Assembly (NCBI GenBank): GCA_028716705.1
Contig: JAQUPI010000003.1
Span: 7,737-71,736 of the forward strand
Reading direction: 5' to 3'
DNA from: Candidatus Omnitrophota bacterium
GTDB lineage: Bacteria; Omnitrophota; Gorgyraeia; Gygaellales; Profunditerraquicolaceae
DNA: 64,000 bases
The position numbers were made by a program, and so were the translations under genes. The first letter of the stretch is position 1, and every line of letters begins with the position of its first letter. The notes beneath the pieces were generated by a model. The model was not told where the DNA came from. It ran no database searches and saw only the letters and a program-made list of their open reading frames with translations. This document shows positions 3,001 to 32,848 of the stretch, one piece after another.

Positions 3001-6000
3001 CGATCCTGTAACCCGGCGCGCGAAAGGCCTTACGCGCTACGCTGACCTGGAAGAAGCCGTTATCAGGTTCTATTACCGTTTATACAGGAAACTGGATGAG
3101 TCGGCTATCCGTAACTTCAAGGATATCCGGGTCTTCGAGCCGCTGAGAAAAGAAATCGGCATATTCGCCGGACGCCTTAACCGTGCGGTGCGCCGGAAAA
3201 ACGCCCTGGAATTCAACGCGCAGGACGCCGGATCGATAGTCAGCGGATTGAAAGGGAAAGCGGCGCTCAGCGAGGAGGAGATCTCGGATCTAAGCGCAGG
3301 GCACAGGTTGTATGATATTTTGCAGCTGGCCGAGATGCTCAGCGAAGATAATTTCGTCAGGGCCTTCTATTCCTGTAAAGTGGAGGCGCCGAAGAGAGTT
3401 TTACCCGAAGAAAAGCCATACGAGGCATATGACGGCACCGGCAGGATCGCGCGGCTGGCCATGGCCCTGAGATTGGTGAGCGACCTGAATAATCCGGCGC
3501 TTTCGCCTGATTACAAGAGCCGGTTCCTGGTCCGGAGCCGAAGTATCGCAGGCGCGACGATGGAAGAGAAATTCGCTAATTGCAGGGAGTCCCTTGAAGA
3601 AATGCTTGCCGACAGCGTTATCGCCTCTTCGAAATTGACCGTGAAGACAGCGCAAAAAGATGTCGAGCTTTCGGAGTTAATCGCGGATAGAAGGGTAACC
3701 TTTGTTGCCGGCGCCAGGGCGCTGAAGGCAAAGCTTGATTCTTTAACTGATATGGAAATAGAAAGCGTTTACCCGGTAAAGGTTCTTTTGGACGGCAGGG
3801 AGATCGCCCTGGCTTATTTCCTCGATTGCGACAAGGGTTTCAGGGCACGGGCTAAAGAAGAGCGCGTGAATGTGTACAATATACCCAGGCCGAATATCGT
3901 GATCGACAACGGCGTCGCTTACCATTTCAGCTTAATGATCGATGCTACGCCCGGAGGCGTTGAGGTAGTGGGGTGGAAGGAAGAAGAGGTTAAGGCCCTT
4001 TCCAAAGAAGAGTTAGACAAGAAGAAGATAAAGGAGCTGAGCGGCCCCACTGTTTTTGAAATGGTGGGAACAGAGAAGATCGACGATCCGGAGTATAAGC
4101 TGGAGCCGGTTTCCGAGCTCCGGGTGCTCAGGCAGCTGAGCAGGCAGATCGAAGAGAAGCGCCTTGAACCAGGAGAACGCCTTACCTATATCAAGGCCCA
4201 GATCGGCAAGCTCACCCTTCCTCTGGGAGGCGGGGTACATTTCTTCGGCAGGTTCCTGCACAAGCTTCCGCTCATAAAAGAGAATGGTTTTAACTATATG
4301 ACGCCTACCTCCTGCAGCACCAACGGCGCTTCTTATTTCAGCCTGGCTTTATCCACGATCACCGGCCTTGGCCTTAAGAACCTGTCGCTTCTGGGCCTGA
4401 CTTATCATATGTACACCTCAGGCAGCGACGCCAAGCAGGTCTATGGGCACCTTTCCCCGAAATCCACCGGAGCGGCCAAGGGCGTCACACAACATCTTAA
4501 ATTAGCAGCAGCGCTGTTTACCGCAGTGCGTACTCCTACCGCCTTTAAAGACGGCCAAACGGATGTAGTAGGAGGCTCTATATTCGATTTTATATTGCAG
4601 CTGCCGTATCCGGTAAAGAAACAGACCCTTATCGCATATTTAGAGAGAGTAGGGATGGAATTCCCTGAGATGCTCAAGGTCTTTGAGGGCCGCCCGGATT
4701 ATAAATGGCAAAATACGATCACCGGCCAAAGGACCGGCTCCATCTTTTATGAAGGGCTCTTTTCCCAGGTCAATGCGAATACGTTCCGGGCCTTCGTCGG
4801 TTATGACAATGAGATGAGCTATTCCTTTAAGATGGACGAAATGAAGGAGGCCTATTACGAACTTCTAAAGAGGCAGCGCGACAGGATGGAAAGATACTAT
4901 GCCCTGCCTTTAAACGGCGAAAAGATCGATAACTATATCCGCAAGGAACCCTGCGAGGAAGAAGGCACCGGGGGCAGTTCAGTGGTTTACAGGTGCAGCA
5001 TCGACTCGATCAAAGGAAACAAACTCTTCAACACTATCCGCATGGCGAAAAAAGTCCGTACAGAAGGGGAAAATACCTTTTACCGCAATGTCATCTTAAG
5101 CCTGCTGGATGAGTATTTCCTGAAGAAAGGCAATTATTCAGTTTCACATATACCGGCGCCCCTCGGATGGATCAAGAACGCCTGTTTCTACATCTTCGTG
5201 CAGGGAGAAGAAGGTTTCCCCTGGGATTTGGGGCCCTTCGGCCACGTGCAGATCGAGGAATGGAACAGCTGCATCGGCTCATTTGGCGCAGCGGGGGTTT
5301 CCCTTTCCAGCGATGTCACTACGCCTGACGACGGAAGGGTATCAAAGAACATCATCGTGGAACCTTATAAAATTTCCGAATTGTACGAAACCATGAAGCT
5401 TTCCAAGATCTGGAAGAGGATAGATGTAGACTCCGGAAGCGTGGGTATAAGGGAGGAAGAACTGGAAAGGTATATCAGGGAGAATCGTGATAGTCTGCAA
5501 AATATCCTGGGATGGAAATTTTCTTTATTGGAAACGGTTTTTGAGATATACTTCAAGGGCAAAAACGCGCAGAAAGAAGGGAATTTCACGCAGCTTTTCG
5601 GGAAGTACCAGAAAGAAATATTAAGGGAATACCTGTATCCTTACAGCAAGCAGGGGATAACCGACAAAATGACCGAATCGAGGAATAAAAAGATACGCCC
5701 TGTAATATTGATCATATTGGACGGTTTCGGTTACAACAGGGAGAGCCGGGATAACGCGGTCGTCCTGGCCAAAAAGCCGGTAATCGACAAGTTGATGAAC
5801 GAATGTCCTTCCACCCTTATCAATACTTCAGGTTTGGCCGTTGGGCTGCCGGAAGGCGAAATGGGTAATTCCGAGGTCGGGCATTTGAATATCGGGGCCG
5901 GAAGGGTGATCAGGCAGGATGTTGTGCGCATAAATGACAGCATAAAAGAGGGGGCTTTTTTCTCGAACGCTGCCTTAAAAGAAGCCGTGGTTCATCTCAA

Positions 6001-9000
6001 GAATAATCCCGGAAGCAAGTTGCATCTTATGGGATTAATTTCTAACGCCGTAGTGCACTCGAGCATAGGGCACCTCCACGCCTTGCTGCAATTTGCTAAA
6101 CAGGAAGGCTTAAAGGACGTATATGTGCACGCAATAACCGATGGCAGGGATTCGCCTCCGCAGAGCGGGAAGGTTTGGATCCAGGCGCTTTTGGAAGAAA
6201 TACGCAAGATAGGCGCAGGCAGGATAGCTACCGTGTGCGGCAGGTATTATGCCATGGACAGGGATAACCGCTGGGAAAGGGTGAATCTGGCGTATGATCT
6301 TTATACGCAGGGAACAGGCATAGAAGCTCAGGACGCCATAGCGGCTTTGGAGGGATCTTACCTTAATGAGCCCAGAGGCGATGAATTTGTAAAGCCGGTC
6401 GTCATGGTCAACCCGGAGCAAAAGCCCTTAGCCTTGATCAAAGACGGTGACGTGGTGATCTTCTTTAATTTCCGGGCTGACAGGGCCAGGGAGATAGCCC
6501 GCGCCTTCATGGATAAGGAATTCAAGGGTTTCGAAAGAAAAACCCATCCGAAGATAAAATGGCTTTGTATGACCGAACACGATAAATCATTCTACGATTT
6601 CGCCGGATTGTCGGTAATATTCTCTCCGGAGCCAAGGTCAAATACCCTGGGGGAGGTCATTTCCAAAAACGGATTAAGGCAGCTCCACATTGCGGAAACG
6701 GAAAAATACGCGCACGTGACCTTCTTCTTAAACGGCGGAATAGAAAGGCCTTTCGAGAATGAAGAACGGATATTGATACCTTCCCCGAAGGTCGCTACAT
6801 ACGACTTGAAGCCGGAGATGTCCGCCAGAGAAGTTACAGAAGCGTTAACGAAGAGGATAAGGGAAGGGACGGATGATTTCATTGTGGTCAATTACGCCAA
6901 CCCGGACATGGTCGGGCATACCGGCATCCTGGAGGCGGCGATCAAGGCGGTAGAAGCGGCAGATGCCTGCTTGGGAGAGACTTTAGAAGCAGTCAACCTC
7001 CAAAAGGGAGTAGCGCTGGTGATTGCCGACCACGGCAATGCCGAAGAAATGTCCGGACAGTATAAGACTTCGCATACGTTGAACCCGGTACTCTGCATTT
7101 TGGTTGATCCGCATAAGCATCTGGGGAAAGTTTCCCTGCGCGAAGGAGGAGCTTTATGCGATATCGCCCCGACATTGCTCGAGATCCTGCACATAGAACA
7201 GCCGCGGGAGATGACCGGAAAGTCGCTTTTCGATAAAAAGGGCCACGCCTTTTGCCCCAAAGACGGCTTTATCGCTTCCGCTATAAGCTTGGGGGCCGGC
7301 TTAACCATAGCGCTTGGGCTGACCTTCCTTTTGGGCAGCGTGTCGGCCATAATAATCGCGGGTTTATTTGCCGGTTACGGCATCTGGACTTCAGTAAAGT
7401 TTGCGCTTCTGGGCAGGGCGACTTTCAATATAGCCGCCAATATGAATCCGCATTTACCTGCCCGCACCGTCCTTTCTTACCCTGTTGCCAGATCCGACGG
7501 CACAATAACCTCTGAATTTGAAGCCCTCCGGAAAGAAAACCCCAAAGCCGCAAAAGAAATCCTTACGCACGAAAGCTCCAAGTCGCATTTCTTGGGGATG
7601 CTGAAGCTGCTGCCCGGCAAATTCATACTTTTATCTATCGGGATCGCGGCTTTAATCCTAATTTTAGGCCAGAAAATAGAGTGGGGATCCGGGACGGTTG
7701 GCTTGGCTATGGTATTCGGAGGGATGTTCGGCGGCGGTTTCCCGAAAGCAAAAATCCGCCTGTTCTTCAAGATAGCCATAGGAAAAGCTGAGGGCGATAA
7801 AGAATTTGCCGCGCAGATCCTGGAAGAAATAGCGAATAAAGGCATGGCCGTGGGTTTCGCCGCGTCAAAAGATGAGCGTATTTTAGCTTTTGAATTATGG
7901 AAACGGTTCCTGGAGATCCAAACCCTTAAGGATTACGCGAAGGACATATCAGAAGAAGAAGCCGAAACAAGGATTCTGGAGATCATCCGCAAGAGATACG
8001 CCGAAGAATCGCAGGTCATACTGGATAATGAGGCGCTGGCAAAGCTATTGGTCGGCTTAATGAGCCAAAACGAGGAGTTAAGCTTAGAGATAGACAGGAT
8101 ATTAACGAACGAATTGAATCTTGGTTTGGAGCTGCGGGAGATGATCAGGGCGGCGACCTCCGCTTCTGATCCTGAGTTGAGGGGATCCGCCCAAAAAGTA
8201 TGGAACGAATTCATAAGAGACGTCGTAAATTTCATAGACAGGGAGTTTAAGAAAGGCGCTGACTGGGGATACCCCATATTAGCGTATTTCGGCACTCCCG
8301 ACAACGCGGGCTTGAAAGCATTATTAAAGAAGATGTTGGAGGCGGACGATGATTTCTTTTACGACATTTACTTGTTTCTATCGTCAATAAGGCATTTGAA
8401 GGTATTGCACGGGGAATTATTGAAGGCCGGAGATTCCCAGGATGCGGAGTTATTGGAATATACGCAAGGCGTTTTCGAGCGTTTTAGCGTAATGAACGCC
8501 TCGGTAGTGGAATTATCTTTGTTCAAAGACGAATACGATGCCGCGGTCCATTCCTACATTAACTTCACGAATTTTTATTCCTTGGAAAAATTAAGGGCAG
8601 GGCTGGAGAGGGGCGCTTCCAGCGCATTAAATATATACAATGAAATTCAACCGTTATTGAGGGACGCGGATGAAAATGTAAGCGCAGAAGCCAAAGAACT
8701 GTTCGTTAAGCTGTTCCCCAAGAATGGGCGCACGCATAACCTGCGCCCCGTATTGCAGCTTGCGGCAGGAATAGCGACTTTGTTTGCGCCTGGAGCGGGA
8801 GCCGGGTTCTTAAGGGTTGCCCGGGAAACTTACAACGCTAATTTGAAGTACATCCGTGAAATAAACGGCAATAAAGGCCCTCCTGCCCTTAAGCAAAAGA
8901 TTTCAGCGTGGTTGCGGCCTGTTGCCTGCGGTATTTCCGCGGCTTACATAAAATGGTTTATTTCCGATGAAGCCAAAGACAGGCTATCTTCCGGGACGAT

Positions 9001-12000
9001 AACTTCCATTACCACGCATGAATCCCAGCCTACGGAAATAAAGGGCCTGCTCGCGCAATACAGGCAATTCACTCAACGCAGCTTTACCGTCCGCCTCAAG
9101 AAATTATTTAAAATATTCTTAGTTTGCGGTTTCGCTCCTTTAGGAATGATCATGGCAGCGCCCGGTCCGCGCAGAGAAGAAGGCGATGCGGAGAAAAGAT
9201 TCCTGGAAGGGGCCAGGCAGGCGCGGATTGCCTTGCAAAGAAAAGATTATCAGTTCGCGCTGGAGATCATCCGAAGCCTGGGCAGCTGGAAAAGGTATTT
9301 CTCAGGGGCATCATTTGACGAATTGTTCAAGCTTAACGGCCTTATCCCGGATTACAATAAGGAACTGAAGAATGCCCTTTCACAGGCATTGAGGCAGTTA
9401 CTGCGCGTCAAAGATCAGGCAGAGATAGGCAATCCGGTGCCCTTGGCTTCCATCATCTTCGCAAATTGCTTTTTAAGCAATGTCTTTCGGACCTGTCCAT
9501 GCCGTCTTTCCAGGCAGGATGTAGTGAATCTGCTTATGGATGCGGGTTTGAAAGTGCCGTTCCTCAAGGAAGAACCCACAAGCCAGACGGCCGTGCCTTT
9601 TTACCTCAAGTTCTTGCTGAACGCGCTTAAGAAGGATTACCTGCGTTCCGACGCGAATACATTTATCGCTTATTATGATACGGCGGGCGCGCTGCTGGCG
9701 TTTGATATATTGCCAAAGTCAAATTTAAGGCACATTTTGGTTTATATGGTTTATGGCGCGAATTGGCAATGGCATTCAAAGATACTGGATTCCGCAGGAC
9801 CGATACGTTTGAAGACGGCAGAAGGCGGATTACTTACTTACAAGATCGTTCAACTTGAGACCATCATCGGTGCGATAAAAGAAACGGATCTTGTCGCCGG
9901 CCTTCCGGATCAAATGGACGCTATTAGAAAAAGGATTGCTTTAATTGAGGGATACGCGGCTCCCTTGAGCGCATCGGGCAGGTCAACGCTGGATGAGATA
10001 AAAAGAAAAGCAGCGGGTAAAATGTCCGCCGAAGAGCAGGAAAAAGTCCTCGCGACCTTGAATAATCCGCCTTTCGCGTGGTTTGAGACATACTTTGAAA
10101 GGATAGAAAAAGAAAAGGCGCTGAAAATGGTTTTAAAAAGCAAGTCGCCTCTTGAGATGATCGTGACCAAGGGCTGTTCCGTGCAATGCGACTATTGCAT
10201 ACGCGCGTCGGAAGCGCTTAAAGGCCCTTATTACATGCCCTGGCCCTGGATAAAGGAATTGATCGGTTTTAACGGCGAGCTTAAGAGCCTGATAGAAAAG
10301 AAAACCCAAGACGCTTTTTCTTATAGAGACGAAGAGGCCAAGATCATCCGCACCTGGTTTGATAATGACCCGCTGCGCGACTACTATGACCCGCTTTATG
10401 ACAAAGATTACGCGGATATAATCCTTGAGATAATCAAGAACGGCTCAATTTCACAGGATGGGTTTTATATACCTACTTCCGGATGGGAGATCGGTTCGAT
10501 AGGGGAACGGGCGATGCGTAAGCTCATAGATATCAGGAGTGAAAATCCCCATATCTTATTTTTGATAAAATTCAATATAAGCACTGAGAAAGAATGGTCC
10601 AGAAAGTTAGGGCGGGATGAATACATCAGGCATATGAAAGCGGCATATGCCTTGGCCAGGCGTATACGTTGTTCCATTGAAACAGGCGAATTAGATAAAT
10701 TCACTTATTGGTCAACGGGGGCATTTGATGCCCAGCTGATAAAGGAAATAGTCGGTGAAGGAGTGGACGACCATCTTCTCGAGATTTTATCCAAAACGCA
10801 TAAGCCGAAAAAAGCCGGCAAAGCCGCCAAATACTCTAAAGAAGAGTCCTGCGAATATACGGACAAGGAAGATTGGATCCTTTTCAGGCCGGACAGAGAT
10901 ATTGAGAAATTCAAGCAATACGCGGAAGCGGGAAAAGGGTTAATAACCCGGGAGTCCTTATTGCCTGTGTTAAGTAAACAAGGCAAAAGGAGGATAAAAA
11001 TTATCGGCCACCTGCCCAAACCTATCCAGCGGCCTTTACTTAAGGCGTTAAGGCCGATGCGGTTTAATGTAAATTCGCCTGTAGAATTATTGACCTTGAT
11101 GACAAAAGAGGAATTATTAAGGGTGGGTAAGGGCTTGCGCCTGGGAGAAGGGGCTATACGCGAGTTGGAGGAGATCCTGTCAAAAGAGGGTCTGTCTCTT
11201 GGCGTAAGCTTGCCCGAAGGGCCCTCTTATGAAATTAGAATAACGGGCAGCGCAAGCGTACCCGGGATCAATGAGTTCTCTGCTTTAATCCAGGGGGAGA
11301 TCGATCATTTCAAGAAGCTTTTAATTTTAAGGGACAAAGAGGTTCTCACCCTGATCAAGGGCTTTCTTCAAGCGGTTATCCAGGATATAAAAGACACAAA
11401 CACGCTTTCCGATGAAGAGGCGATGGAAACGGCAAATTACGCTTTAAAGAATGATACTAATACCCTCCGGTCAGCGCAAGGCAGGGAAACCTGGAGATTT
11501 GTTAAGGGCAAGGGGGTCATGGTTGAGGGTAAGGATGAGATCATTAGTAAGGAAATATTCTTCAGCACCGCCCTGGGTAACCTGGTAAGCGGGATCACGG
11601 GGAACTTGGGGGTAGTAAGCGCTGATCCTTTTGCCCAACCCAAGCTTTTGGCCGACGAATTAATGCAGTTGATAGATAGCATTATGACTTATCTTGCATA
11701 CGTCCGGGCTCTAGAAATATGTTATCCGGTGCGCGGTCTCGGGCCTGGAACATACGAATTTTCGGGGGAAATAATATCAGATGGAGGCATTACCTCGCGG
11801 ACGCTGGAATCAGCGGGATTTGACGCGCATAAACGTTCCAGGGTTCTTGAGGCGCTGACAAAGATCCGCAAGTTTAATGTTCATAATCGCGATTTCTCCT
11901 TTGAAAGATTGCAGGAGAAAATAAAAGGCTTACTGTTATATGAAGGAAAATCAAAGGAATTGGCCCGCAGGGCCGTTTATAACGCGCTTATAAATATGGG

Positions 12001-15000
12001 AAAAGCCGCCTCCAAGGGCGATGCTGGGATAAGTCAGATCCTGGGATTGGCGGGCGAATTGTCCGGAGTATATGAGGTGGTTATAAACAGGGGTAATACG
12101 CTGGAAAAAATAAGCCTGGGAGACTTAGAGGCGATAAACCATATTGTTTATGATGATAATGCCGCGAAGAAAGAATTTGACGCGGTCAGCACGAATACTG
12201 TTTTTGAGTTTAAATTCCACCTTACACTGCGTAAGCTTTACCAGCAGGTGATCGGCATAGATTCGGCGCATCTGCCGCACCTGAAGGTGCTGGAAATGTA
12301 TCCCGAGAGATTTTCTAATATACGGAACATTGTTTATTTCGGAGAAGCGGAGAGCGGATACGTAGTAAAGGCGATAACGGCATTTCTTAACAGCCTCTCG
12401 CGTGAGCGCAGGGCTGATATTGTGAAGAGGATAACGATAACCAGGAATAAGGGAGTTTCCATAAAATTAACATTGGCGGAAACGGCGGAATTTCTCTGCG
12501 CCGGATCAACCATGGACTTTGTTATAGAGGAAGGGCGCAGGCACGGGAACGCATTCCCGGTAAGGGATTTTGCGCGTATACGCAATTGCGTAAGAGAGGC
12601 GATAGGAACTAAGATCAGGCAGCTTAGGGAGGGAGAGAAGTTCGATGTAATTATCGGCGTAAGCAGGACTTCCCCTCAAAATATAGAAGGTATCAGCGGC
12701 GTAAAGAGTTCAAGCGCCGCGGAGGCGGGAGAAGCCTCCTTACTCCTGACCAAGCCGGATAATACGGTATTTTTATCCGCTATGCAAAAGGATAGATTCA
12801 CCAGAGACGGGCTTTATACTTTTAAAGATATTATAGCCAGTATTATGGCAGAACCGTTTTCAAGAGCTGCCGCGATGGCGGAAGAAGAAACATTGAATGA
12901 GGCAAACAGTATAAAGCGCAGCATCCCCGGATACGAAGGTTTTGAAATCAGGGATATTATTAAACGAATGGCAAAGACGCCTGAGACATGGGAAGATGTT
13001 TTAATCCAGGATTTAATAGCGTTGAAAAATCTAAGGGAGTTTTACGAAAGGAAAAAATACCTGGAGGAAGCTTCGAGACAGGAGCTGATTAATGAAACTT
13101 ACAACCACGAAGTCCTGATGCGCGCCTGGAATATCGTGAGCAGCCGCGCCGCACAGGAGAGTAAATTACGCACTGCCTTAGAGCACGAAGAAGCCGGTAT
13201 AGCCGCTTCGAAAACAGGGGATTACGCTTATGAAATAGCCGCTTACAGGTTAGCTTTAAATCATCTTCCCCAAGGCGGGAATTTCGCAGCTTACAGGCAG
13301 CGGATTGAAAGCCGGCTTAAGAATGCTATAGAATCGGCAAGGTTGAGAAACCAGGGCAAAGGCAAGATGAATGGGAACACGCGAGGCCAGGGCGGGATCG
13401 GCAACTTAGATGATAATCAAGCAGAAGAGATAAAGGGTTTGATAAGCCAGAATAAACGCAGGCTCCTTCCGGCCGCCAGGAAACTTATAGACTTATTTGA
13501 CGGCGTTCCGGTTAATGTCTATTTTCTCACCAGCCAGATCACCCGCGCCCCGCCGAAGGGCTTCATCTGGGAACAGATCAAAGACGGCGAATTACATATT
13601 TATTTCTCCTCCTTAACCTGCTACAAGCAATACGCTCAGATACCTTCCGCCTTAAATTTCTTCTCCTGTCACGGTACTATCGAAATCAGCACGATGATGC
13701 AAGGGGTTTCCCCCGGGCAGGCGCATACCATCGCCTGGGAAAAGGCTGCCCAAAGATATCCCCAGGCCGCCAGGGAAATAAAGGCGTTGCTTAAGAAGAG
13801 AGTCTGGCGCGAAGACGGCAGGATAAGGGTTTCACAACACAGCTACATCGCCAGGAAGACAAGAGATGTCACCAGGTATGTTTTAAGCGAGGGCGCGGCA
13901 ACCCACAGGACAATGTGGGAGGCATTCCGGGCCGAAGACCACCGTATTGATTCGGAGTTGGAGGACAGGATCAAATGTATCCGCAATATGGGATTGATCT
14001 CGCAAGCGGTCAGATCACTTGAAGGCCAGAAATCGCCATTAAAAGAAGAAGAACGCGGCAAGGTCATAGAGATCGTCCGGGAAATGAGCGCCTCAATGGT
14101 AAAACCCGCGGGCAGGCCGAAGATCTCGGAAAAGATAATCTCGCAGATCCTCTCAATAACCGCTCAGGAATTGATCGACACAGTCCAGGAGCCGCGCCAT
14201 GAAGCCATTGAACTGCTTAAGAACATCCATGAAAACCTGAAGCTGCGCAAAGAAGGCGCCGAAAGGATAATTGCCGGCAGGCGGATTGCGCTTAAGGAAT
14301 TGAGAGAAATGTCCAGGTCTACTAATATGGATATCTCGCGCCGGGCGGAAGCGGCGGCTAAACTGGCGCAAAGCGGCGAATTGAATAAGGCCAAAGGCCA
14401 GATACTGGGCATAACCAGGCTAGGCATTATCAAGGGAGAGCCGGAGTATTCCCCGGTCAAACGTCTGCTCTTTGCGGCCTCAGGCGCCAAGGATGAGAAG
14501 AGGGTTTCTGCGGTCCTGGATATGGTCAAGCAAAAGTTAAGAGAGATCGAGTTTCTTTATGAATTCATGATCAAATACCGCGATGACCTTTTATCCAAAG
14601 AACTTAAGGAAGACGCGCCTGTCGATAAGCAACAGCTCTTGAAGGAGACCTTTGTATTTTTCTGGAAGACTGCCAATTCCGAATTCGCCGATCTGTTGAA
14701 CAGATCGCTGAAACAACGCGCCATCTGGTGGGCTAAGGTATACAGGGCAATTTGTATTTCCCTGAATATCAATGACCCTGAAAACAGGTCGCAGCGGATC
14801 CCCAATCCGGTATTTCTGGGCATAGCGCGCTATATCCGTTTACTGGAATACAATTTTATCGAAGATCTGTTGGGGAAGAGGGACATCGGCGCCAAGGTGA
14901 GGGATATTCTGAAGGAGGCGCAGAGCGAAAAGAGAAAAAGCGGCAATGTAATACGTAAAGAAAATGAGCTTAAAACCTATATTGTCCAGGATGACCTGGA

Positions 15001-18000
15001 TGGATTAGCAGAAGCGATCTCGCAGGATCTCAAATTAAACCCGGGAAAAGAAAGACAGGATCTGCGGGGTTGCGTATGGAAAGAAGACAGGCCCAGGCCG
15101 CAGCAAAGCGCAACCAACGTGAAAACCTTACCCGGTCCTCCCGCTGAAAATGTGGGAGAAAAAGCCGGCGAAAATAAAGAGCCGCAAACAGAACTGCGGC
15201 ATATAAGATCGGTTTTAGGATCCGGCCTGTTCAGGCAGCGTTCTCCGGAAGAGCTAGCGTATATTGAGAGGGACAATTACGAGCGCTTTATGAGAGAAGT
15301 AAGGATGAACTGGGTATATCATAACGCCAAAAACTATATCCTGGAATACGCCAGGGAAATGAACGAATATGAAAAGACCGCCTCAAAGATAAGCGCCTAT
15401 GAGAAAAAGACCCCAAAGAGGAAGAGAAAGATAAGAGGGCAGATATGGTTTCTTCTGAAATGGGCGGCCGAGGGAAGGCATTTTACGAAAATCCAATCCG
15501 AGCGCCTGGCCAGGCTTGTCCCGGCTCCGGAGCCTGTTCCGCAAGACTCAAAGCCCGCATTCGAGCCCAGGCAGTTAAGCTTCGATCTCGGACAGATCAA
15601 ATTCGGCGTTGCCGAAGGCAATATCAACGGCAAGAAAGTTAATTTCCTTGCGGATGGAACCGGCATGACGGATAACCTCTGGATCCCTCCGGTACATTCC
15701 GGTTTTTCAGTTTTCCAAGGAGATTTGGAAAGGTTTATCCGCATGACCCCGGAGAAGTTCACGGCATTGATCCTGGGCTTGCTGGCAGGCAAAGCGCTGA
15801 CCTTGAAGCAGAAAGAAGAGATAGGCGCTTTTTGCTCTGCCATAAAAGAGATTTACGGGTTGAGAGAAAATTATCTTTTTGAGGGCCACTACCCTTATAT
15901 TTGCGACAGTTACGCAAGAAGTACGGCCGAAATACTTCAAAAACACGGCTTGAAAGCCAGAGAACAAGACAGGAGTTGGCCTGAATTGAAACGGGTGCTG
16001 ACCGATCCGGCCGACGATCCCGAGCACCATTTTGTCAGGTGCCGCATAGCCGGGTACAATTTCATCGTCGACATCACCGCTGACCAGTTCGAGAGGGAAG
16101 ATGAAAAGGGCAAATACCAGCAATTAGGCATTGTGGTCCTGCCCGTGCAAGAGGCGCGCAAAGACCCCGCCAGGTTCTGGATGTATAACAGGAAGCTGTC
16201 CGATTCATTCTCCGTTGTTCCGCCGGGGGAACGGCCGGACGCGCTTGGGCAGTTCGCGGAATTCCTAAGGATATTTGAAGAAGAAAAAAGGGAGGCGTTA
16301 GCGGATATCCTCTGGCCTGCCGTTAAAGCCAAAGATAAAAAGAAAGAGGTTTTCAACAGGGAAGATCAAGGGCGGATCTCGAGGTTAAAATACGCCCTGG
16401 CCGAACTGAAGGCAGAGAAGATAAAAGTCTTATCCGTAAAGGAAAAATACCCGTTCGATATAACCGACTCCAAGCTTACATTCGTGGCCGATATGGTTTT
16501 GGATGGCAATAAAGGCAGGTATTTCATAAAGACCCGAAGGACGTGGACGAATGAGCCCGAAGACGATGCCTGCAAAGTGCTGGAAGAATTGTGCCTGCCT
16601 AACTCCGCTACCGTTGTGGTAAGGGATTATTTTGTTTCCAAATACGTGGGCGACGCGGACCTGACATGGGTATCAGCCGAACAGATGAAGAACAGGGAAT
16701 TCAGGAGGGGGCTGTGTTTCGAATTGGGCCGGGCATCGGCAGCGGCTTATATCATAGGGTTAGCAGACAGGTCGCCGACCAACATACGCATATGCATGGC
16801 CAGGGATAAAAAATGCGTTTTGGCGATCAATACCGACTTGACTACCGCCTTCCAGCTGCTTGAGCTGCCTTCTGAAGTGGGCGAGCAGTGCATTATCTTG
16901 AGCTTTCTTTTCAACCTATCAAAAGAAGCAGGATTGGAAAAAGAAGAGTTCAGGTGGATAATCCGTTACTTTATAGAAGGATTCTGCCAGCAATATTCGA
17001 CCACAGGCAAATATTACCTTAAAAACTCCGGCAAGATAGATAATTGGTTATCAAATCTGAAGTATTACCCTCTTGTCAAAAAAAGATTATTGTTGCAGGA
17101 GGAAAAGATCTCAGGGCTTTCACAAGAGATTGAAAATAAGTTCAAGCAGGATTATTGCCGCGATCCGGAACTGATTGGGGACGCGGAAGATATGAAATTG
17201 GAAGTATTGATCCGCATGACCGTGGAAAAAGCGGAAAACCTAGGGATGCCGCTTACGAGATTCGATGAGCTGCTGATAAGGGGCACCGGGCAGCTGGTAA
17301 AAGAAGCGCATAAGGACCAGAAGCGCAAGTCCGGGGAGCCTTATTTTAATCACCAGTTGGAGGTTGCGACAGAGGCAAATAATTTTGACCTGTCGGAGTT
17401 CATAATCAACGGCCTGTATACGCTGATGACCAATATAGCGCTCTTCCATGATACCCGTGAGGACCAGGGTAAATCTTACCGCGAGATCAAGCACGGGATA
17501 GAGAGACGGCTTGAAGAGACAAAGCTGCACAGGACGGGCGAAAAAGAAGCCTTAAGGGCGTATAACCTGCTGCGTTTAGGCGTAGCCATGCTTTCGAAAT
17601 TGGAAGGCGGGGAGTGGAGATGGATTCCGTCGACCCTGGGAACGCGGCCGGATGTTTCCTGCGAACCGGAAGACGGGATAACCCCGGAAGAATTGACGCC
17701 TCCGGCAAGAAAGATCGAAGGCAAAGGCGGCTTGTGGGTTTGGCAAGATATGAGCCCCGGAGAGATCAAGGCGGAGTATTACCGCCGGCTCGTAAACCCG
17801 CGCAGCTTATTTAATAAACATATATTATTCCCCGAGTCGAACCGTTATGCCGACTACAGCGATCTGTTCATCAGAATGATACAGGTGATCAAATTGGCCG
17901 ACCGGATCGCGAATTTCCGCGACCTGGCCAGTTTATTCAAAGCAGGCATGGATATTACAGAGTCAAAGGCCTTTGTAGAGAAGGTTTTCAATGAAACCGC

Positions 18001-21000
18001 GGAATATTTCCTCCCTGCGTTCGTGGAAAGCTCGCAACACCTTACTTTTACCGAAAAAATCAATTTCTATACTATCCTTACAGAGATAATAGACGGATAT
18101 ATCAAGAACGAAGACCCGGCCGCAAAGTGCCTGAAGGATGCGGCCGCGGATTTCAGGCTGAAGATCGAAGTGGTAATACCCGGCCAGGCCGAGGGCACAT
18201 TGTATTATCCTGCGGCGAGAAGAGATTTTAAGACGGTGGCATACTGGCTGGATGTTTTCACGGGGATAAGCACGGTGATCCTGGCTGACCCGCTGGTTTT
18301 CCCGAGGCGTTTAAGGGCGGTCGAGGAACAGGATAAGCGAGCAGAGATAAGCCTGTTCAAAGAAAAACTCCCCGAGGCATTGTTAAGCTCCGGATTCAGG
18401 CTGATTAAATTGCGGGAATTCAAAGATAAGGTCATATTCTACGCCTACTATAAGGCAAGGAAGATAAGATTCAATTATTATTTTCTCGATTATGCCGATA
18501 TGTATTTCAGGTATAAGAAAGGCCTTCCGTCAGTGGTCATCGCCTCCTACGCCGGCTGGATGGGGAATCTGCTCAGGGATTCGAATTTTTATACCAAGAT
18601 ATTAAGCCAGATGCGAAAGCCCGGATATCTCATAGCATACGCCGATTCTTACGAGGAAAGGCCGGAGGCGGTACTGGGAGACATCAAAAGATACGGAATG
18701 ACGCCGGTTAAAGGCAATCTTCCGGCAGGTTGTTATATTTACGTTAAGAAAGATGATTTTGCCTGGGAACAGATATCGGCATTGGAGGAGAGGCCGGGTA
18801 ATGTCAAAGTCGCGCTCAGGACATTAAAAAGCCATTTTTCCGACCGCGGCTGGTTTACCTTGAAAGATTTCCTCGGCAATTTAGATTCGCAGTTCGCAAA
18901 TTACCCGAGAATGAAGAACGGCCATGTCCTGAACAGCCGCAGGGCGATAACCAATCTCTTGAGGTTGAAAGACCGCGGAGTAGAAGTCAGAAATAACGGC
19001 AAGGCTTATGAGTTTCGTTACCGGCAAGAGTCGGGGGAAAAATCCAGGAACTGGCCGAAAAAAGTTCCTTTAAAGGCGAAAGAAAAATACGCGAAAGAGC
19101 CTTCATATGAATACAGGGTCATCGCCGGTTTTGATCTCGATAAGCGCAAGAAAGCCCCGGGTATTTCTTACGAAACGGCCAGGGCAAGAGAAGCGATCAT
19201 GATCAGGCTGCTTAAATTAATAAACAAGACCTCCTTGCCTTTGGCGCCGCCTTTTAATTTAAAGATTTCCCCGCAGATCGACACCTATGCAGGGACAGAG
19301 ATAGAAGGGCAGAATGTCATCCTGCATCCCGCCTTTTTTGAATTATCTGCCGCAATGCAGTTTATTATCCTCTATCATGAAGTAGCCAGCCACCTGAAAA
19401 AAAGGATATCCTCCGAACCCCGCGCGCTTTTTGATACGTTAACCGGCGTCTTGCGCGCCTTGCCTTTCATGTTTAATGCCGAAAAAGAAAGAAGGTTCAT
19501 TAAGGAGGTATTCCGCAGGAACGCCCGTTTCCTGGGAACGGGTAAAAAGAAACATCTGCCTCCCGTAAGCTATGATACGGAATGGCTGATCAGAAGGTTC
19601 GTATGCGGTGACGAAGATATAAAAGCGTTGATCCTCGGACTCTGCAAGCGATATTCCGGATCGCTGCAGAAAGGCCTGAAGCACTATTTTTGCGTCAAAC
19701 CGAGCGCGGAATTACTGGTCACGGTTTTAGTTTATGGCGATAAGTCAAACAGAGCGATCGCCTTGAAATGTATTACGGAGTTTGTTTACTCCTATGGCTT
19801 AGACGAAAAGAAAGTTATCGACGGCTGGTTGCAGGGCGATGACGGGTGGCTTAACAATATGGTCAGCAATATGACTATCCTGGAAAGCCTGGAAAGGGAA
19901 AGGCCGGGATCCGCCAGAGTTTTATTCAGGGAATTCGGGATCGCGGATTTCGGCAGATACAGCCTGGGTATGCTGATCACTCAATACGACGAAAGGGATA
20001 ATGCCGCTTCGCCTTACGGCCTGGTTATCTACCCGAGGCAGGATAATGACATAGAGAACGGCGGCGCCTTCTATAAAGATTCGCAAGTCCTGGATAATCT
20101 GCAAAAACAAGCCGGTGACTGCGGATTACTGTTAAGGGTAGTGGAATGTTCAAGTAAATATGATGTGGCCCGCAGGGTCATCAGGGCATACGAGCGTTAT
20201 GGAAAGATATCTTTCGCGGTCCTTGGAGGGCATGGGACCGAAAATTCAGTACAGTTCGGAAAAGCAAAGGACGCAGGAAGGCTTGTCAAAGGGGACCTGA
20301 GCGGTGCCGCGGAGAAAGCCGCCAAATTCTTTATCCCCGGGCCGTCAGTAATATTATCCTCTTGCTTTACCGGCCGCCCCGGAGGATTCGCCCAGCAATT
20401 ATCGCATGCGCTCTCTGCCACGGTCATTGGCCCGGAAGAATCCACCTTTATAGATAATATCAGTGTTTATGTAGAGGAAGACAGGGCAGCTTTCCAGGTA
20501 GAGTACCGTAAAGGATCCGCGAAGACATACTTAGCAGGAAAGCCGCTTGAAAACCGCTTCGAGGAGAATTCTTCCGCGCCATTGGGAGAATTGGCGGAGG
20601 CCAGAGAAGCGCCTGATAAAGATAACGGCAAGAACAGGGGCGGATCAGGGTCCAGATTCGATTTTGCTCCGGAAATAGACCAGGAGAAAAGAGACCAGCT
20701 AAAGAGTGCCGTTTTGAAAGAGGATTTCCTGAAGAGCAGCGTTAAGAATATCCTGGGGATAGACGGACTGGAGCTGGATGATGTAGAGCGGATTTCGCTC
20801 AGCTTGATAGAGAAGGCCAGGTTTACCGAGGTTTACAGGATGACGCTCAAGACAAAATCCGACGGCTTAAATACCCGGCGCAACGGCGAAAGCGCGTATA
20901 TAGTTTTGAAACAATTCACTGTCGGGGCGACTATGGACGAAAAAACGAACCGCATCAGCCGCCTGAGAAAATTATCATTCGAAAAGAAATCAGGGCTTGT

Positions 21001-24000
21001 TCCAAGGTTCGGAGATTATCTGCCGGAAGAAGAGATATACTCGGTTGAATTCATACCGGGAGCGGATCTGGCAGGAATGTTGCGGCAAAAAGACATCCTG
21101 GAGCAGAAGAAGCGGCATTTAAAGGAGCAGGCGATAGTCCTTGCTCTGCAATTAGCCAAATCTCTGGGAGAGGAAGACCATGCGCTGGAGTTCCTGATAG
21201 AGATGAGGAATCCGGCTAACGTCATGTTCCGCGATGCCGGAGGAAAATGCGAGCAGCCGGTTTGCGTCGATGTCGGATATTTTACGACCAGGGAGCCGCG
21301 CGAAATAATGCTTACCCTGGGAAATTACATAGACGGCATCTATTTTGGGAATAAGGAACCGCAAGAGTTTTTATTTAACGCGGTTTTAAAAGCCCTGGGT
21401 GACGAAGAAGGCTGCGCTTTCCTTAAACAGGCGTTTGACAGCAAGCTTAATTATCACATAAAGGAAGAATTAGACGCGTATTTGAATAAGAAGACCGGAG
21501 TGAGTCTTCAGAAAGAAAAGGTCACCGCTATCTTTAAGGCCATGGCGAGGGGTAGGGCCGCTCCTGCCAACGCTGCCTTCAAGCAGCTCTGCAGGGACTT
21601 CGGTTTTGACCACCGCGACGCGAATGCCGGGCTAAAAGCGTTGATCATCGGGGTAAAGAGAGGTTTTATCGCGGAAAAACTGGATATAAGGCATCTTTCG
21701 GGAAAGATAAGCAAGATAACGGCGATAACCGGGATGCCAATAGAGATGGACATAAATAATTTAGAGAATGACATAATTGACTTGATAGATGCCGGTTATA
21801 CGGAAGAAAAAATAACCATGGAACTACTTATAGATAACGCTTCCTTGGAAGATTACATAAAGCGGATCAACGATAAATTAGACATATCGGCCAGACAGGT
21901 TCCTGAGGCCGAGGTCATAAATTGGGGTAATGAAAAAGAAGATGACGAAGTTCCTCTCTCCCAGGATGAAAAAAAGATATTAAGGGCAAGAGGCAATTCT
22001 TTGAAAGAGATGATGCCTGAGTTAAATATGGGCGGAGCCCAGATCAGCAATCTCATTTCCAGTATTTGCATTAAATTACAGGCGAACAGTTTCTCGGAGG
22101 CAAGAGAGAAATTCTTCTCCTCAGTAAAAGCGTATGTTATAAGCAAGGGGTGCCACTCGCTCATAGCCGAAGAGGTAGTAAGAGACGCGGATCCCCTGAA
22201 AACATCCCAAGTCCTTATGAACGAAAAACAAAAACTGACCGAGCAGGGTTATACGCTTATTTTAGCTTTATTCCTGGCGATAAGAGAAAGAAATTCAAAT
22301 AAGGTTGTGACGCAGGGATTAAAAGAAGCCATAAAAGAATCCTTTGCTACCGGGAATCCCAAGTGCGGCGATTTCCTTAATGAACTCTGCGATATTGCCG
22401 GCAAAGAGCGCATCGTCAGCGAAATAAAAAATATATTATTAACGGACATGGAAATACTGGAAAGGCTCTGCTCGGAAGAAACCCTGTCCAGATTAAATGC
22501 GTTAATTAAAGGTATCGCTCCGCAGATTGTCCTCAGGACAGCAAACCAGGTACGCATTTTAAAAGAAGTCGTGGCTTCTTCCAAAGCTAAGCAGGTATTG
22601 ACTCAGAAAGATATAGCCGGGAAGATCGGTGTTTCCACGGCTACCGTCAGCCGGGACATAAAGATCCTTCAGGAATCCGGATTTATCGATGTCCGCAAGA
22701 TCATCATTGAGAAGAGGGTTTATCTCTTCGGCCAGGCCCCCGAGTTCATCCTTAATGATGCGGAAGGGGCGATCATGAAAGAGTTGGAAAGGGCGAATTT
22801 ACCTTTATCGGCCCGTGAGCTGGCGAAAAACACCGGCTTACCCAAGAACAACATCCGCAGGAATACCAAAAGCCTCAAGAAAAAGGCACCGGTCAAAGAG
22901 GTTCTGATCAATAAGAGCGTCAAATTTTACCTGGGAGATAAACTTCCTAAATTTATCCTTACGCCTATCGAAAAGCGGATCCTGGAAATACTCTGGAGAA
23001 AAGGCCCTTCGACGCAAAAAGAAATAGCCGGGGATGGGATATCAAGCGGCATGGTCAGCGTTTATGCTAAAGAATTAAAGAGTTGGGATTTGATCAAGGC
23101 GCAGGGTGAAGGCAGAAGCAACGTTAAGCTTAGCTTGACTCCGGAAGGAGCGAAATTTATAGCGCCTGAAATAAAGTTCGGAGTGGCGCAAGGTAATATA
23201 GGGGATAAGAAAGTTTATTATTTTGCGGACGGAATTCAGAATGAAGATATGCAAAACGTATGTTTCTTCCAGGGCAACATGATAAAGATATCCGCTGCCG
23301 CTGACAAAGGTAACAAGCTGCCCTTATCAAAAGAATCATTGTCTTTAAGAATCGCGTCTGTAATGGATAAGTTATATGGCTTTACGAGCCTGAAAGAATT
23401 ATCGGGTATCTTAGGCATACCCGATTCTACGCTATCTCCTTACATGAAGCGCTGTTTCAACAGGATAAACAGCAGGCGCAGGAAAAAAGAAGAGCCCGTG
23501 TACCGGGTCTACAACGATAATACGGTGCAGGCGATGAGAAGCGTGATCGCGGTGCTCAAGAAATGGGGAAGGATAACCGTGGAAGAACTGGCTCTGCAAT
23601 TAAGCCAAGGAAATAGATGCGTAGAGAAGAAACAAGTCATTTCCATCGCCGCGAGGATCGATTTTGCCCTGGTGAACTGGTGCATGGTCAAAAACAATGA
23701 AGAGACGATAGGGATCCAGGGGCTTGAGCCGGTATACAACCGCAATAATACGCAAGAAATACTGGCAGGGTTAGGCAAAAAATTCAGAAAAATATCCATG
23801 AAACAGATAGCGGACGCTTTAAGAGGCATGCCTGAATCTAATGTCAGGCGTTTGATAGAGGCGATGCAAAAGGAAGGCACTCTTCCTTTTGAGGAGATCA
23901 TCCCTTACGAATCGGTGCGCAAAGACATAGTATTTAAGGCGATGGAGGAATTGTCCGCGGAGCGGGCCTCCGGATCATCCGCCAAGCAAATAACTGAAAG

Positions 24001-27000
24001 GGCGATAGCCATAGGTTCGGCATTAGGGGTGCCCATATCAAAAGATATCTCGCTAAGGAAGATACGCGCGATAAAAGAGGAAGGTGTGTTGCCGGCCAAG
24101 ATCATCTCCCATCCCAGGACGCAACAACCGCTCCGCAAGGCCAAGACGCCGAAGGTAAAGGCGCGTAAAAGCACTAAGAAAGCGATAGACCTCCGCTCAG
24201 CCGGCGTTTCAGCCCGGGAAGTACCGCTGGTTAAGCCGGCTGATCAGCCCGTACAGGAGCGTGACGCCGCTTGGTATGCGAGCAAGGATTTTGAGGTCGG
24301 GAAAGAAAGAAGGAACGGCTCAGCGCAAAACGGAAATAGAAATACTCTGCCGGAAAAGAATGTGACGATATTTATAAAACAAGTAAATAAAAAGGTGGAA
24401 TTTTCCATAAAAGAAGCGCTTATCTTGATCGCCAAAGGGTATTCGGCTAAAGAGATCCGCGAAGAGATCGGCAACGGCTTGCTTGAAAATCATATCACGT
24501 CATTCAAAATAAGCATCTTTGTGAAATTAAAAGATACGGGCCTGAGGATTATCGCGGAAGATACTTTGGAGTCATTAAATATGGCCAGGACTATATGTTC
24601 GGGACCAGTAAGAGAAGAACTCATAAAACGCGGATATCCATTGCCCGAAAAGCTCGCGGATAAACCGGCCGTATCAATAACCAGCCAGCCCAGGCAGGCA
24701 GGATTTTACGTTAACGGAGTGTTAAGGGCCCAATTCACCGATGCGGTTGATCCGGAAGATTGCTCTGCCAGGCGCATGCTAAGCGGGAATGGAACCTATA
24801 TCTTTGATGCGGGCTGCTTCTGGAGCGCGAGGATAGAGTATCTAAGGAAGATAGGGGCGATGCTTCCGCAGAATAATCAAAGGAAGCGGTGCTTGTACAT
24901 AGCTTCTGCCGCGGACTATTCTACGGCGCAGATAGTATCTGACGGCGCGAAAGAGACTATTTTTGTGGAAAAACTTCCCTTTGAAGGCGTGGCCGGGTTT
25001 CCCGAAGAGGAATTAGAATATTTCAAAAATTCGTACCATATGCAAGGTTTTGACAGCAACTTCCATCACGTATGCAGCCTCGGAAAAGGGATAGGTATAA
25101 AACAGTACCTGCTCTGGGAGCTTGAAGCGATGGGGGTTAAGACGCAAGCCGTAAGCGTTGAATTTGACACAGCCTTAAACGCGCACAGGATGAAATTTAC
25201 TGTCCCGGGCGCATCGCAAGAAAGAAGCATCCTCTATTTTAATACAGAGGCGGAGGCCATAAGCAGGTACCCGCCGTTAGTTGACCTTATCCGCGAAGGG
25301 TTGGATTCTTTTATTATAAAAGCCGCGGTAGATGTTTGTCTCAGCGATGAAACCATAGGTCTGATAGTTACCTCTATGAACCCTGACGGGATGATGTTCT
25401 TAGACGCGAATTTTGCCTTTTTCAGCGGATCCCTGGAGTGGTTAAACGAGGAACAAATGCGGCAGATCAGGGCCTTAGAGAGGGGCCATGGTTTTGCTTT
25501 CGGGTACAAAGAGATAATCCTGGCCAGGCCCAGGAAGCTTTGGGGAATAGGGCCCAGGAAGGCGGGATTTTATATTAATGGGAAACCTGCCGCGCAATTC
25601 ACAGATGCGGTTTCAGAGGATGACGCAGGTTCGGGGCAGCATGGAGCGCAAGGTTCTGTAGGCCCGTCTGCGCACAAAGGGTTAAGGGCGATATGCTTAT
25701 CATTGATCCTTATCTTGTTATCAGCCCGCGCGGGCGCAGTTAATGCGATGATCGACCTGGCGATCCCCATGAAATCCGCCATAGCGAATACTGTTTCCAT
25801 CGAAAGCCTGTCAGTAGATAACGCGACGGTCGGCGAACGCTTCGCCCATAAAGTCGTTCCATGGGATAGGTTTAATGTGTTGGACAGGCCTGTCTCGCTT
25901 GAAGAAAAGGCCCTTTTGAGAAAGTTTTCGCAACCATCTGCCGCCTACGATAATAGCTTCACGCAGCTAGTAGATAAAATATTTGAGAAAGAAGGGTATA
26001 CAGACAACCGTTTAAAGGAGATCGGCAAGGACGACCCGAAAAAACTGGTTCAGCTTATTGCGGAAATTGTCTACAGGAATGTCCAGTACGATCATACAGC
26101 GTTAAAGGCATCGCAAAAATACAATAAGATTTTTACCGCCAATCTTGGCAATAATAATTTAACAGCTCTGCTTGAACAGGGGTTGACCGCGGAAGAAAAA
26201 ACCTTATTAAACAGAAATCTGACAGAAGTCATTAAAGAAGGCGGTTTATGCGATGATATATCCGGAGTATTTTCAGCCGTCGTCGATTATATGCAAAAGA
26301 AGAACGTATTGACTCAAAATTTATATGCCAATAATTTTACCGGCATAAAAATTGATTCCACGAACCCGATGGCTTATCCTTATACAAAAATAGGCTGGCA
26401 TGAATGGAATAGGATATTTACGCTGGACGAATCCGGAAACCTTATATCGACGCATATCGATATAACAATATATAGCCCTTCTTTGACATGGCTAGATTCG
26501 GTTTTAACATTCAAAAAATCCGGATTAAACGCCGTTGATATAAACCACCGCATTAATATGGGTGTATTGTCCGATAAAGGTTTCAAAACAGAGAGGAATC
26601 TGCATTTAGATAATATCCGCCGATATTTTGCGTTCATAAACTCTACCGTTTCCTACGATCCTAAGATACTTTTGCCGATGCATGTACGAAGAAAAGGCAA
26701 GGTTTCTTCAGTTCCCGGCAAAGGCGAACCGGAAGAAGAACCTTTATTCGATAAATTTAAATGTTACAAAATAGAAGATGACGGCAGCCTTACTGTAAGT
26801 TCTGACTACGGATCTTATCAGGACAACATAAAAACAGGGTTGTCCAAATATTCAGAGAAAGTATTTTGCGTTATGGGGATTAACCGGGTTGTCCTCGCGG
26901 AAGTTTGGCCCGGCCTGAATATCAGCTCGCGCCGCTACTGCGATTGCGCAGGCATAGTGATCAAAGACGGGACATGGATGATCGTATTCCACGTATTATC

Positions 27001-32797: not shown

Positions 32798-32848
32798 AAT
32801 TGGTTTTAAAAATAGGATTAATTAACAAATTTAGAGGAGGTGAGAAGG

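Follow-up and report, generated by a model that had tools for sequence, protein, structure and literature searches.

A hydrolase module inside a giant reading frame

The DNA analysed here, referred to as the window, is a stretch of 64,000 nucleotides from a Candidatus Omnitrophota bacterium (assembly GCA_028716705.1, contig JAQUPI010000003.1, positions 7,737 to 71,736 of the forward strand), and it begins within a giant open reading frame (ORF) in which a hydrolase domain from the superfamily of RelA/SpoT homologues (RSH), Pfam family HD_4, is embedded. Judged by its sequence, this module belongs to a rare and divergent RSH hydrolase subfamily that is missed by standard thresholds. The host ORF and the parts of the module are the following:

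2..32797, plus strand: host giant ORF of at least 10,931 codons, a stop-free frame with its 5' end beyond the window
17201..18154, plus strand: RSH-type (HD_4) hydrolase module of 318 residues (5734-6051, counted from nucleotide 2), the block common to about 40 homologues
17321..17368, plus strand: motif I, KRKSGEPYFNHQLEVA, with the substrate-binding Arg at 17324-17326 and the first metal His at 17351-17353
17441..17467, plus strand: motif II, LFHDTREDQ, with the metal His-Asp at 17447-17452 and the catalytic Glu-Asp at 17459-17464
17603..17782, plus strand: lineage-specific loop insertion (EGGEWRWIPS...SPGEIKAEYY) of about 50-60 residues, predicted to be disordered
17888..17926, plus strand: motif III, IKLADRIANFRDL, with the last metal Asp at 17900-17902 and the Asn at 17912-17914

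The original prediction had placed a RelA/SpoT-type HD domain at 17300-17935 within the giant ORF, and the domain is confirmed; the motif strings quoted for it are reproduced by the translation of this stretch. The conserved module extends beyond these limits. From N- to C-terminus, it has a helix, the HD catalytic core and a helical bundle of about 95 residues. The insertion lies between the motif I-II half of the core and its motif III half and is absent from most homologues, several of which have unrelated insertions at the same site. Two traits separate the family from canonical RSHs, namely the C-terminal extension and the subfamily signature HDTREDQ, for which canonical RSHs have HDxxEDT. 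On the opposite strand, no ORF of at least 100 residues overlaps the three motifs. Since the frame is free of stops from nucleotide 2 onwards, the true start of the giant ORF lies upstream of the window; the GTG at nucleotide 185, where the ORF finder set the start, is not necessarily the true one.

Family, fold and catalytic residues

A Pfam search with a 317-residue piece of the module returned HD_4 (PF13328) as the sole family, with an E-value of 5.8e-5 and 23.3 bits against a gathering score of 27.2, and the match spans only positions 4-83 of the 156 in the profile. This half-domain, sub-threshold match arises because the insertion separates the KLAD block from the rest of the core, and with a score under the Pfam cut-off the module goes unannotated. 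In NCBIfam, only TIGR00691 spoT_relA (E 9.7e-10) and the SpoT equivalog were matched, both via their N-terminal hydrolase part. In a single-sequence search of the PDB, all eleven best matches were RSH enzymes, namely Rel/RelA/SpoT enzymes and one small hydrolase (top match 9s6k, 3.3e-6), with the KLADR..N block as a separate aligned segment; the counterpart of motif III, which aligns in this separate way, is KLADRLHNMRTL in Rel and KLADKLYNLRDL in Mesh1.

The shared block of 35 family members was aligned (alignment A1), and this alignment was used as a profile against the PDB and for AlphaFold2. The profile matched Mesh1/HDDC3 (3nr1) with an E-value of 1.3e-19, Rel enzymes with values between 1e-18 and 1e-12 (Rel at 1.9e-18), and also RelH, other small alarmone hydrolases (SAHs) and a (p)ppApp hydrolase; among the 23 PDB chains matched, the specifically named ones are all RSH hydrolases or Rel/RelA/SpoT, and three carry generic names. 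The AlphaFold2 model is all-alpha, with a predicted local distance difference test (pLDDT) value of 86.1 and a predicted template modelling score (pTM) of 0.86; the core exceeds a pLDDT of 90, and model residues 140-178, in the region of the insertion, fall below 50. When this model was compared with the PDB by Foldseek, the 26 best matches were all RSH hydrolase domains, with target-normalised TM-scores of 0.62-0.68 to Mesh1, RelH and the (p)ppApp hydrolase 7smg at a probability of 1.00. Viral Foldseek matches were SAH-like proteins and no closer than the cellular ones.

These searches also bear on the idea that the module is a generic phosphohydrolase of the HD superfamily, or owes its likeness to a chance resemblance of three short motifs. 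Such an idea could draw on the four of the 35 members that also touch the generic family PF01966; HD_4, however, was found in 18 members (best E 2.6e-9) and TIGR00691 in 30, with no further Pfam family, and neither the sequence searches of Pfam, NCBIfam and the PDB nor the confident matches by fold included any other HD family (phosphodiesterase, HD-GYP, dNTPase or YfbR-type). With E-values down to 1e-19 and the RSH-specific Arg, Glu-Asp and Asn present, we regard a generic or chance likeness as extremely improbable, and the hidden Markov model (HMM) searches that had been proposed for telling a generic from a SpoT-type HD domain speak for the latter.

Eight residues of the module, numbered from window nucleotide 2, correspond to catalytic or binding positions of Mesh1:

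Arg5775: Mesh1 R24 (printed profile alignment)
His5784: Mesh1 H35 (printed profile alignment)
His5816 / Asp5817: Mesh1 H61 / D62 (printed profile alignment)
Glu5820 / Asp5821: Mesh1 E65 / D66, the D66 equivalence being corroborated by the D66K sequence of the MESH1 structures 5vxa/9chy
Asp5967: Mesh1 D122 (printed profile alignment)
Asn5971: Mesh1 N126 (printed profile alignment)

The His-Asp metal site, whose integrity the original prediction had marked for inspection, is complete: H5784, H5816, D5817 and D5967 are all present and form an intact tetrad (His...His-Asp...Asp), each column of which is either invariant in A1 or conserved to at least 90%. In motif I the His is invariant and the Arg at least 90% conserved; in motif II no variation occurs at the His and the Glu (H83 and E87 of the module), while the two Asp (D84 and D88) as well as the Asp and the Asn of motif III reach at least 90%. 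The residues specific to RSHs, i.e., the Arg of RxSGxPY, the Glu-Asp after HD and the Asn of KLADxxxN, are present and conserved as well. The members of A1 are only 25-41% identical to the query, yet all eight residues are kept, and their conservation across so divergent a family argues for selection on catalysis.

It is against this background that a degenerate, non-catalytic remnant has to be considered, i.e., a pseudo-hydrolase like the HD domain of RelA that would serve as a structural spacer or an interaction surface. The splitting of the core by 50-60 disordered residues, the Pfam score under the gathering threshold and the surrounding sequence without recognisable homologues would all suit a remnant. 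The loop that holds the insertion, however, accepts insertions of independent origin in other members, the pLDDT of the modelled core is above 90, and the catalytic and binding residues are intact and conserved among distant homologues, so that we consider a remnant very doubtful.

The Pfam tiles spanned the entire giant ORF and all other ORFs of at least 150 residues in the window, and they contained no RelA_SpoT synthetase (PF04607), TGS or ACT domain. A six-frame search of the window with filters off and a profile of seven full-length long RSHs matched the hydrolase part only. The view that no synthetase domain is evident nearby, for which a look for PF04607 elsewhere in the ORF had been advised, is thereby upheld, and SYNTH, TGS and ACT were not found in the family-carrying proteins or their examined flanks either. 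With no SYNTH, TGS or ACT/RIS in the window, neither a partner synthetase nor the ribosome would regulate the domain.

Relatives, host protein and downstream genes

Relatives of the module are scarce: HMMER, run exhaustively over 1.84 billion representative proteins, gave only 43 at E <=1e-3, mostly pieces of very large proteins with as many as 7,498 residues. A word-indexed homologue search with the module returned distant long RSHs only, but it appears to be blind to giant proteins, as it missed even the identical NCBI protein. A scan of GTDB genome contigs with a query built from an 8-sequence alignment found carriers in Candidatus Omnitrophota, including Ca. Tantalella remota (four loci), in an 'uncultured bacterium' and an 'uncultured Planctomycetia' (one locus each) and, as one weak match, in Candidatus Peribacteria; the module-bearing ORFs of these carriers have 994 to at least 6,923 residues. 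An additional carrier is a Margulisiibacteriota protein of 3,145 residues. The NCBI entry MDD4940117.1, a 3,424-residue fragment labelled 'hypothetical protein [Candidatus Omnitrophica bacterium]' on a 10.5-kb contig of a metagenome-assembled genome, is 100% identical over 390 aligned residues that cover the module and adjoining downstream sequence.

When the whole giant protein was compared by BLASTP with all relatives, the module alone was shared, except for one rearranged block in protein P0026. A conserved neighbourhood around the module is thus ruled out, and the module appears as a shuffled mosaic element. In its closest relatives, a guanylate-kinase (Gmk) domain lies directly N-terminal of it, namely in proteins P0009 and P0052, in an ORF of locus L006 and in the giant ORF of locus L002. 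The order is Gmk-HD-dCMP deaminase in P0009 and RtcA-Gmk-HD in the L006 ORF (543-3524), RtcA being the RNA 3'-phosphate cyclase, a name that P0052 carries as well; in L002 the Gmk-HD block occupies ORF residues 3110-3590.

Moreover, the family includes stand-alone genes in an archaeal setting:

Locus L010, 6001-6981: stand-alone P0014, 326 residues, annotated Candidatus Altiarchaeota, between a PGM/PMM gene and the genes for replication factor C (RFC), archaellin and isoleucyl-tRNA synthetase (IleRS)
Locus L013, 690-1565: stand-alone P0037, 291 residues, with the same RFC-archaellin synteny as P0014

The conserved synteny of these copies involves the RFC small subunit, archaellin and IleRS genes. 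A further protein of 495 residues (P0012) combines the module with DUF835 and lies among archaeal ribosomal protein genes. In a neighbour-joining tree without support values, the family stands apart from the HD domains of three long RSHs and from two short SAH-like proteins, and it may form a distinct clade. The direction of transfer between archaea and bacteria is not inferable from this tree, as it is star-like.

The host ORF itself encodes a mosaic multi-enzyme protein, in which Pfam recognises DOT1-like methyltransferase, cofactor-independent phosphoglycerate mutase (iPGM) and winged helix-turn-helix (HTH) domains, PCMT and other methyltransferases, HEAT and TPR repeats and a C-terminal VTT/DedA membrane domain. 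The iPGM is found at 5699-7198, and at this locus much of glycolysis is carried by huge ORFs in modular form. For the flanks of the HD module (residues ~5430-5730 and ~6060-6330), the PDB gave no sequence relatives and Pfam no more than a very weak PI3/PI4-kinase hint (E 0.13); homologues of the upstream flank were not found. This hint concerns GLADRSPTNIRI at nucleotides 16757-16792, just upstream of the HD module, which resembles a PI3/PI4-kinase-like catalytic loop and is likewise without a PDB sequence match or homologue.

Several further features of the giant ORF were noted. Two short motifs recur in it: R[QK]AGFY[IV]NG....AQFTD[AS][VI] occurs three times (starts 24701, 25565 and 29180) and IKFGVA[EQ]GNI..KKV..[FL]ADG twice (starts 15596 and 23171). 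Neither was found outside this protein, one of them recurring in P0008, which is an identical fragment of the same gene, and they may be module-boundary or processing motifs. Near the N-terminal part there is a HExxH string (HENQH, nucleotides 1331-1345), and several mutually similar 'LHE' segments recur along the protein; both might have to do with the autoproteolytic domains that giant proteins of Omnitrophota are reported to contain. Past the VTT/DedA domain, the ORF ends (~32400-32570) in a strongly basic, periodic Ile/Lys/Arg tail …IKPVRIIIKGIRIRVRPLKIKVRALRIKIKKLRIKVKRLKISIKKLIIKKG…, and an opposite-strand ORF of 192 residues that overlaps this tail (32197-32775) is probably spurious.

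Downstream of the giant ORF, the following genes were found:

32840..33178, plus strand: PilZ gene 1, a small single-domain gene directly after the giant ORF (Pfam PF07238, E 9.3e-11, 42.4 bits, cut-off 22.5)
33393-34916: ORF of 507 residues with a hydrophobic N-terminus, between PilZ gene 1 and the glycolytic fusion
34906-42408: ORF of 2,500 residues, a fusion of PFK, GatZ/KbaZ-like aldolase, GAPDH (two C-terminal-domain matches) and PGK
42454-48141: ORF of 1,895 residues, PPDK-like with long unannotated tails
48300..48629, plus strand: PilZ gene 2, small, after the PPDK-like ORF (Pfam PF07238, E 3.3e-9, 37.4 bits)

The first PilZ gene has an RxxxR...DxSxxG motif. For the 507-residue ORF no recognisable family was found, the sole Pfam hint being DUF1694 (E 0.009). 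Beyond PilZ gene 2 follow genes for a solute-binding protein, two permeases of the ATP-binding cassette (ABC) type, a transporter of the major facilitator superfamily, GH2-like proteins and ROK and LacI regulators.

The proximity of PilZ (c-di-GMP) genes had been taken as a sign of nucleotide second-messenger involvement of the HD domain. Both genes are real and score above the Pfam cut-off, but their adjacency is not specific to the HD module: the nearest one lies about 15 kb downstream of it, PilZ was not found near the module in the other module-carrying loci examined, and in Omnitrophota, loci with a giant gene generally have small pilZ genes after it (West-Roberts et al., 2023, bioRxiv 10.1101/2023.11.21.568195). 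A specific PilZ-HD association was consequently rejected, and the adjacency is no evidence of a link to the HD domain. What stands of the second-messenger proposal is the assignment to the RSH hydrolase family; the link to PilZ found no support, and a role in messenger turnover would follow from the family by inference.

Predicted activity and its meaning

From Rel and Mesh1, the residue set retained here is known to bind Mn2+ and to cleave the 3'-pyrophosphate off (p)ppGpp. On balance, the module is probably an active, hydrolase-only RSH module within a giant Omnitrophota protein, i.e., a metal-dependent 3'-pyrophosphohydrolase of (p)ppGpp-like nucleotides, a reading that we favour with moderate confidence. 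His5784, His5816, Asp5817 and Asp5967 would hold the divalent metal (Mn2+ in the known enzymes), and Glu5820/Asp5821, Arg5775 and Asn5971 would be used to remove the 3'-pyrophosphate of a (p)ppGpp-type nucleotide, yielding GDP or GTP and pyrophosphate. As it has no partner synthetase, the module could only remove such nucleotides and not make them. It would most likely act on the cytoplasmic side, together with the other enzyme modules that depend on cofactors, a setting suggested by its winged-HTH, S-adenosylmethionine (SAM)-dependent and kinase-like neighbours. A part in guanine-nucleotide housekeeping is conceivable because the closest relatives carry guanylate kinase directly upstream; this neighbour is a weak pointer to guanine nucleotides.

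Functionally, the module is best described as SAH-like. With the SAHs Mesh1/HDDC3 (3nr1, 5vxa), RelH (7qoc/7qod) and the Bacteroides caccae (p)ppApp hydrolase (7smg), it shares a hydrolase-only, all-alpha HD fold, identical metal ligands (H, HD, D) together with the Arg, ED and Asn, and the absence of a synthetase in cis. However, SAHs are stand-alone proteins of about 140-200 residues, whereas the module found here, 318 residues long, is buried around residue 5,750 of a protein that has 10,931 or more; small stand-alone members of the family do exist, i.e., the archaeal ones of 291-326 residues. Compared with SAHs, the module also adds the N-terminal helix, the C-terminal bundle of ~95 residues and the disordered insertion, and it has HDTREDQ in place of HDxxEDT. 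The HD domains of the long RSHs Rel, SpoT and RelA (1vj7, 6s2t, 7qpr, 9s6k) are the best single-sequence matches in the PDB, and their motifs I-III match block for block (RxSGEPYxxH, HDxxED, KLADRxxN), but long RSHs possess a synthetase C-terminal of the HD domain as well as TGS and ACT/RIS, all of which are lacking in the window. SAHs from phages and toxin-antitoxin systems (PbcSpo, PaSpo; ATfaRel) are similarly hydrolase-only, have no cognate synthetase in cis and act on alarmones from another gene or cell; they are small stand-alone proteins in phage or toxin-antitoxin contexts, whereas here neither toxSAS nor phage genes nor a toxin-antitoxin architecture were found.

As for the locus, it corresponds to the 'Archaeovorin'-type loci of Omnitrophota (10.1101/2023.11.21.568195), which likewise have a giant ORF with a few membrane spans, HEAT/TPR repeats and embedded enzyme modules, followed by pilZ and then by a solute-binding protein, ABC permeases and glycoside hydrolases. 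All of these downstream elements are present in the window. In described giant-gene loci, a Type II/IV secretion-like cluster lies upstream of the giant gene, whereas the window starts inside the giant ORF. The sugar-metabolism, kinase-like and methyltransferase modules of the host agree with the 'multi-enzyme metabolic cluster' class of giants (10.64898/2026.06.07.730766) as well. An RSH, HD_4 or ppGpp-related module is mentioned in the main text of neither of these two reports, PF13328 itself having been looked for in the latter only, and within the literature collection searched there was no paper linking Omnitrophota with ppGpp.

Several points weigh against an active (p)ppGpp hydrolase. 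The activity of every member of the subfamily is predicted from its sequence, and the signature HDTREDQ has an Arg and a Gln where the canonical HDxxEDT has a hydrophobic residue and Thr, substitutions that could change specificity. The pairing with guanylate kinase is confined to one clade and absent from this window, where the module instead follows the segment with the faint PI3/PI4-kinase-like catalytic loop (E 0.13). By crude hydropathy, three to five possible membrane spans lie between the iPGM domain and the HD module, which bears on the side of the membrane it faces. Furthermore, stand-alone members occur in archaeal (Altiarchaeota) contigs, and RSHs are rare in archaea, while bacteria of the Planctomycetes-Verrucomicrobia-Chlamydiae (PVC) supergroup, in which Omnitrophota are counted, were reported to be without long RSHs (Atkinson et al., 2011, PMC3153485). 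The archaeal members and the PVC report imply that the substrate may not be a self-made alarmone, and the cell may make no (p)ppGpp at all, as is the case for metazoan Mesh1.

These considerations lead to an alternative that we take seriously, if as rather less likely, in which the same fold and chemistry would serve a non-alarmone substrate in the manner of metazoan Mesh1, an NADPH phosphatase, by taking a 2'- or 3'-phosphate or a pyrophosphate off a metabolite or salvage intermediate, e.g., NADPH, 3'-phosphoadenosine 5'-phosphosulfate (PAPS) or pAp, or other 3'-phosphorylated nucleotides. The module would then assist the metabolic and nucleotide-salvage enzymes of the giant protein. Mesh1/HDDC3 is in fact the top PDB match of the profile, and MESH1 has been solved in complexes with NADPH and PAPS; the altered signature, the archaeal stand-alone members and the reported lack of long RSHs in the PVC supergroup (PMC3153485) point in the same direction. 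So do the fused partners in relatives, which include guanylate kinase, dCMP deaminase, RNA 3'-phosphate cyclase, a nucleotidyltransferase and a protein named 'CMP/dCMP kinase' in IMG, as well as the glycolytic and SAM-dependent enzymes of the host protein itself. However, all residues used for (p)ppGpp hydrolysis in Rel and Mesh1 are kept, Mesh1 itself hydrolyses ppGpp in vitro (title of 3nr1), and the profile gives Mesh1 (1.3e-19) and Rel (1.9e-18) scores too alike to tell the two apart.

Another conceivable reading is a prey-directed role, in which the giant protein would be exposed on, or delivered from, a predatory or episymbiotic cell, and the module would destroy the alarmones of the host cell, dampening its stringent or defence response in the way proposed for phage-encoded SAHs, or turn ingested (p)ppGpp into usable GDP or GTP. 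The prey interface has been proposed as the place where giant proteins of Omnitrophota act, and predictions give most of them a membrane anchor and large regions on the outside; an odd number of hydropathy peaks between the iPGM and the module is possible. Moreover, SAHs encoded by phages counteract alarmone toxins of the toxSAS type (Jimmy et al., bioRxiv 10.1101/575399), and the occurrence of the module in Altiarchaeota-type archaea is compatible with gene exchange between cell kinds. No sign of secretion or delivery was found, however, the neighbouring winged-HTH, SAM-dependent and kinase-like modules need cytoplasmic cofactors, archaeal prey is not known to use (p)ppGpp, and the module is a sporadic mosaic element rather than a conserved part of the giant proteins. 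A prey-directed role is hence improbable in our view.

More tentatively, the family could be a hitherto unclassified clade of RSH hydrolases, marked by HDTREDQ and the C-terminal bundle, that processes a foreign or non-alarmone phosphonucleotide in lineages that may make no (p)ppGpp. In such a clade, prey-derived (p)ppGpp might be fed into guanine-nucleotide salvage via the adjacent guanylate kinase, or the substrate might be one that is new for RSH enzymes, and the clade would be shared by giant mosaic proteins of ultra-small, host-dependent bacteria (Omnitrophota and Margulisiibacteriota) and by Altiarchaeota-type stand-alone genes. We regard such a clade-wide function as unlikely but worth considering.

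RSH hydrolases are usually paired with a synthetase or occur as small stand-alone proteins, whereas the intact one described here is a shuffled module in giant multi-enzyme proteins. The fold and the residues of RSH hydrolases are already known; new, as far as sequence comparison tells, is a divergent subfamily that is employed as a module of giant proteins and, in some archaea, as a single gene. Standard pipelines overlook it, given the Pfam score below the cut-off and the NCBI label 'hypothetical'. As a compact piece of 318 residues that folds well in the model, the module is suited to expression and assay, and its archaeal stand-alone copies point to gene flow between bacteria and archaea.

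The question it poses is the same as for animal Mesh1, i.e., which role an alarmone hydrolase plays in a lineage that is possibly without the alarmone. A lineage without (p)ppGpp synthesis, or an enzyme with a new substrate, would raise the interest of the finding if either proved true. Omnitrophota are a poorly understood, uncultured phylum of predatory or episymbiotic bacteria, and most of their giant proteins are 'dark'. In this context, the recognition of the module extends what these giant proteins are known to contain by a predicted activity in nucleotide signalling or nucleotide salvage.

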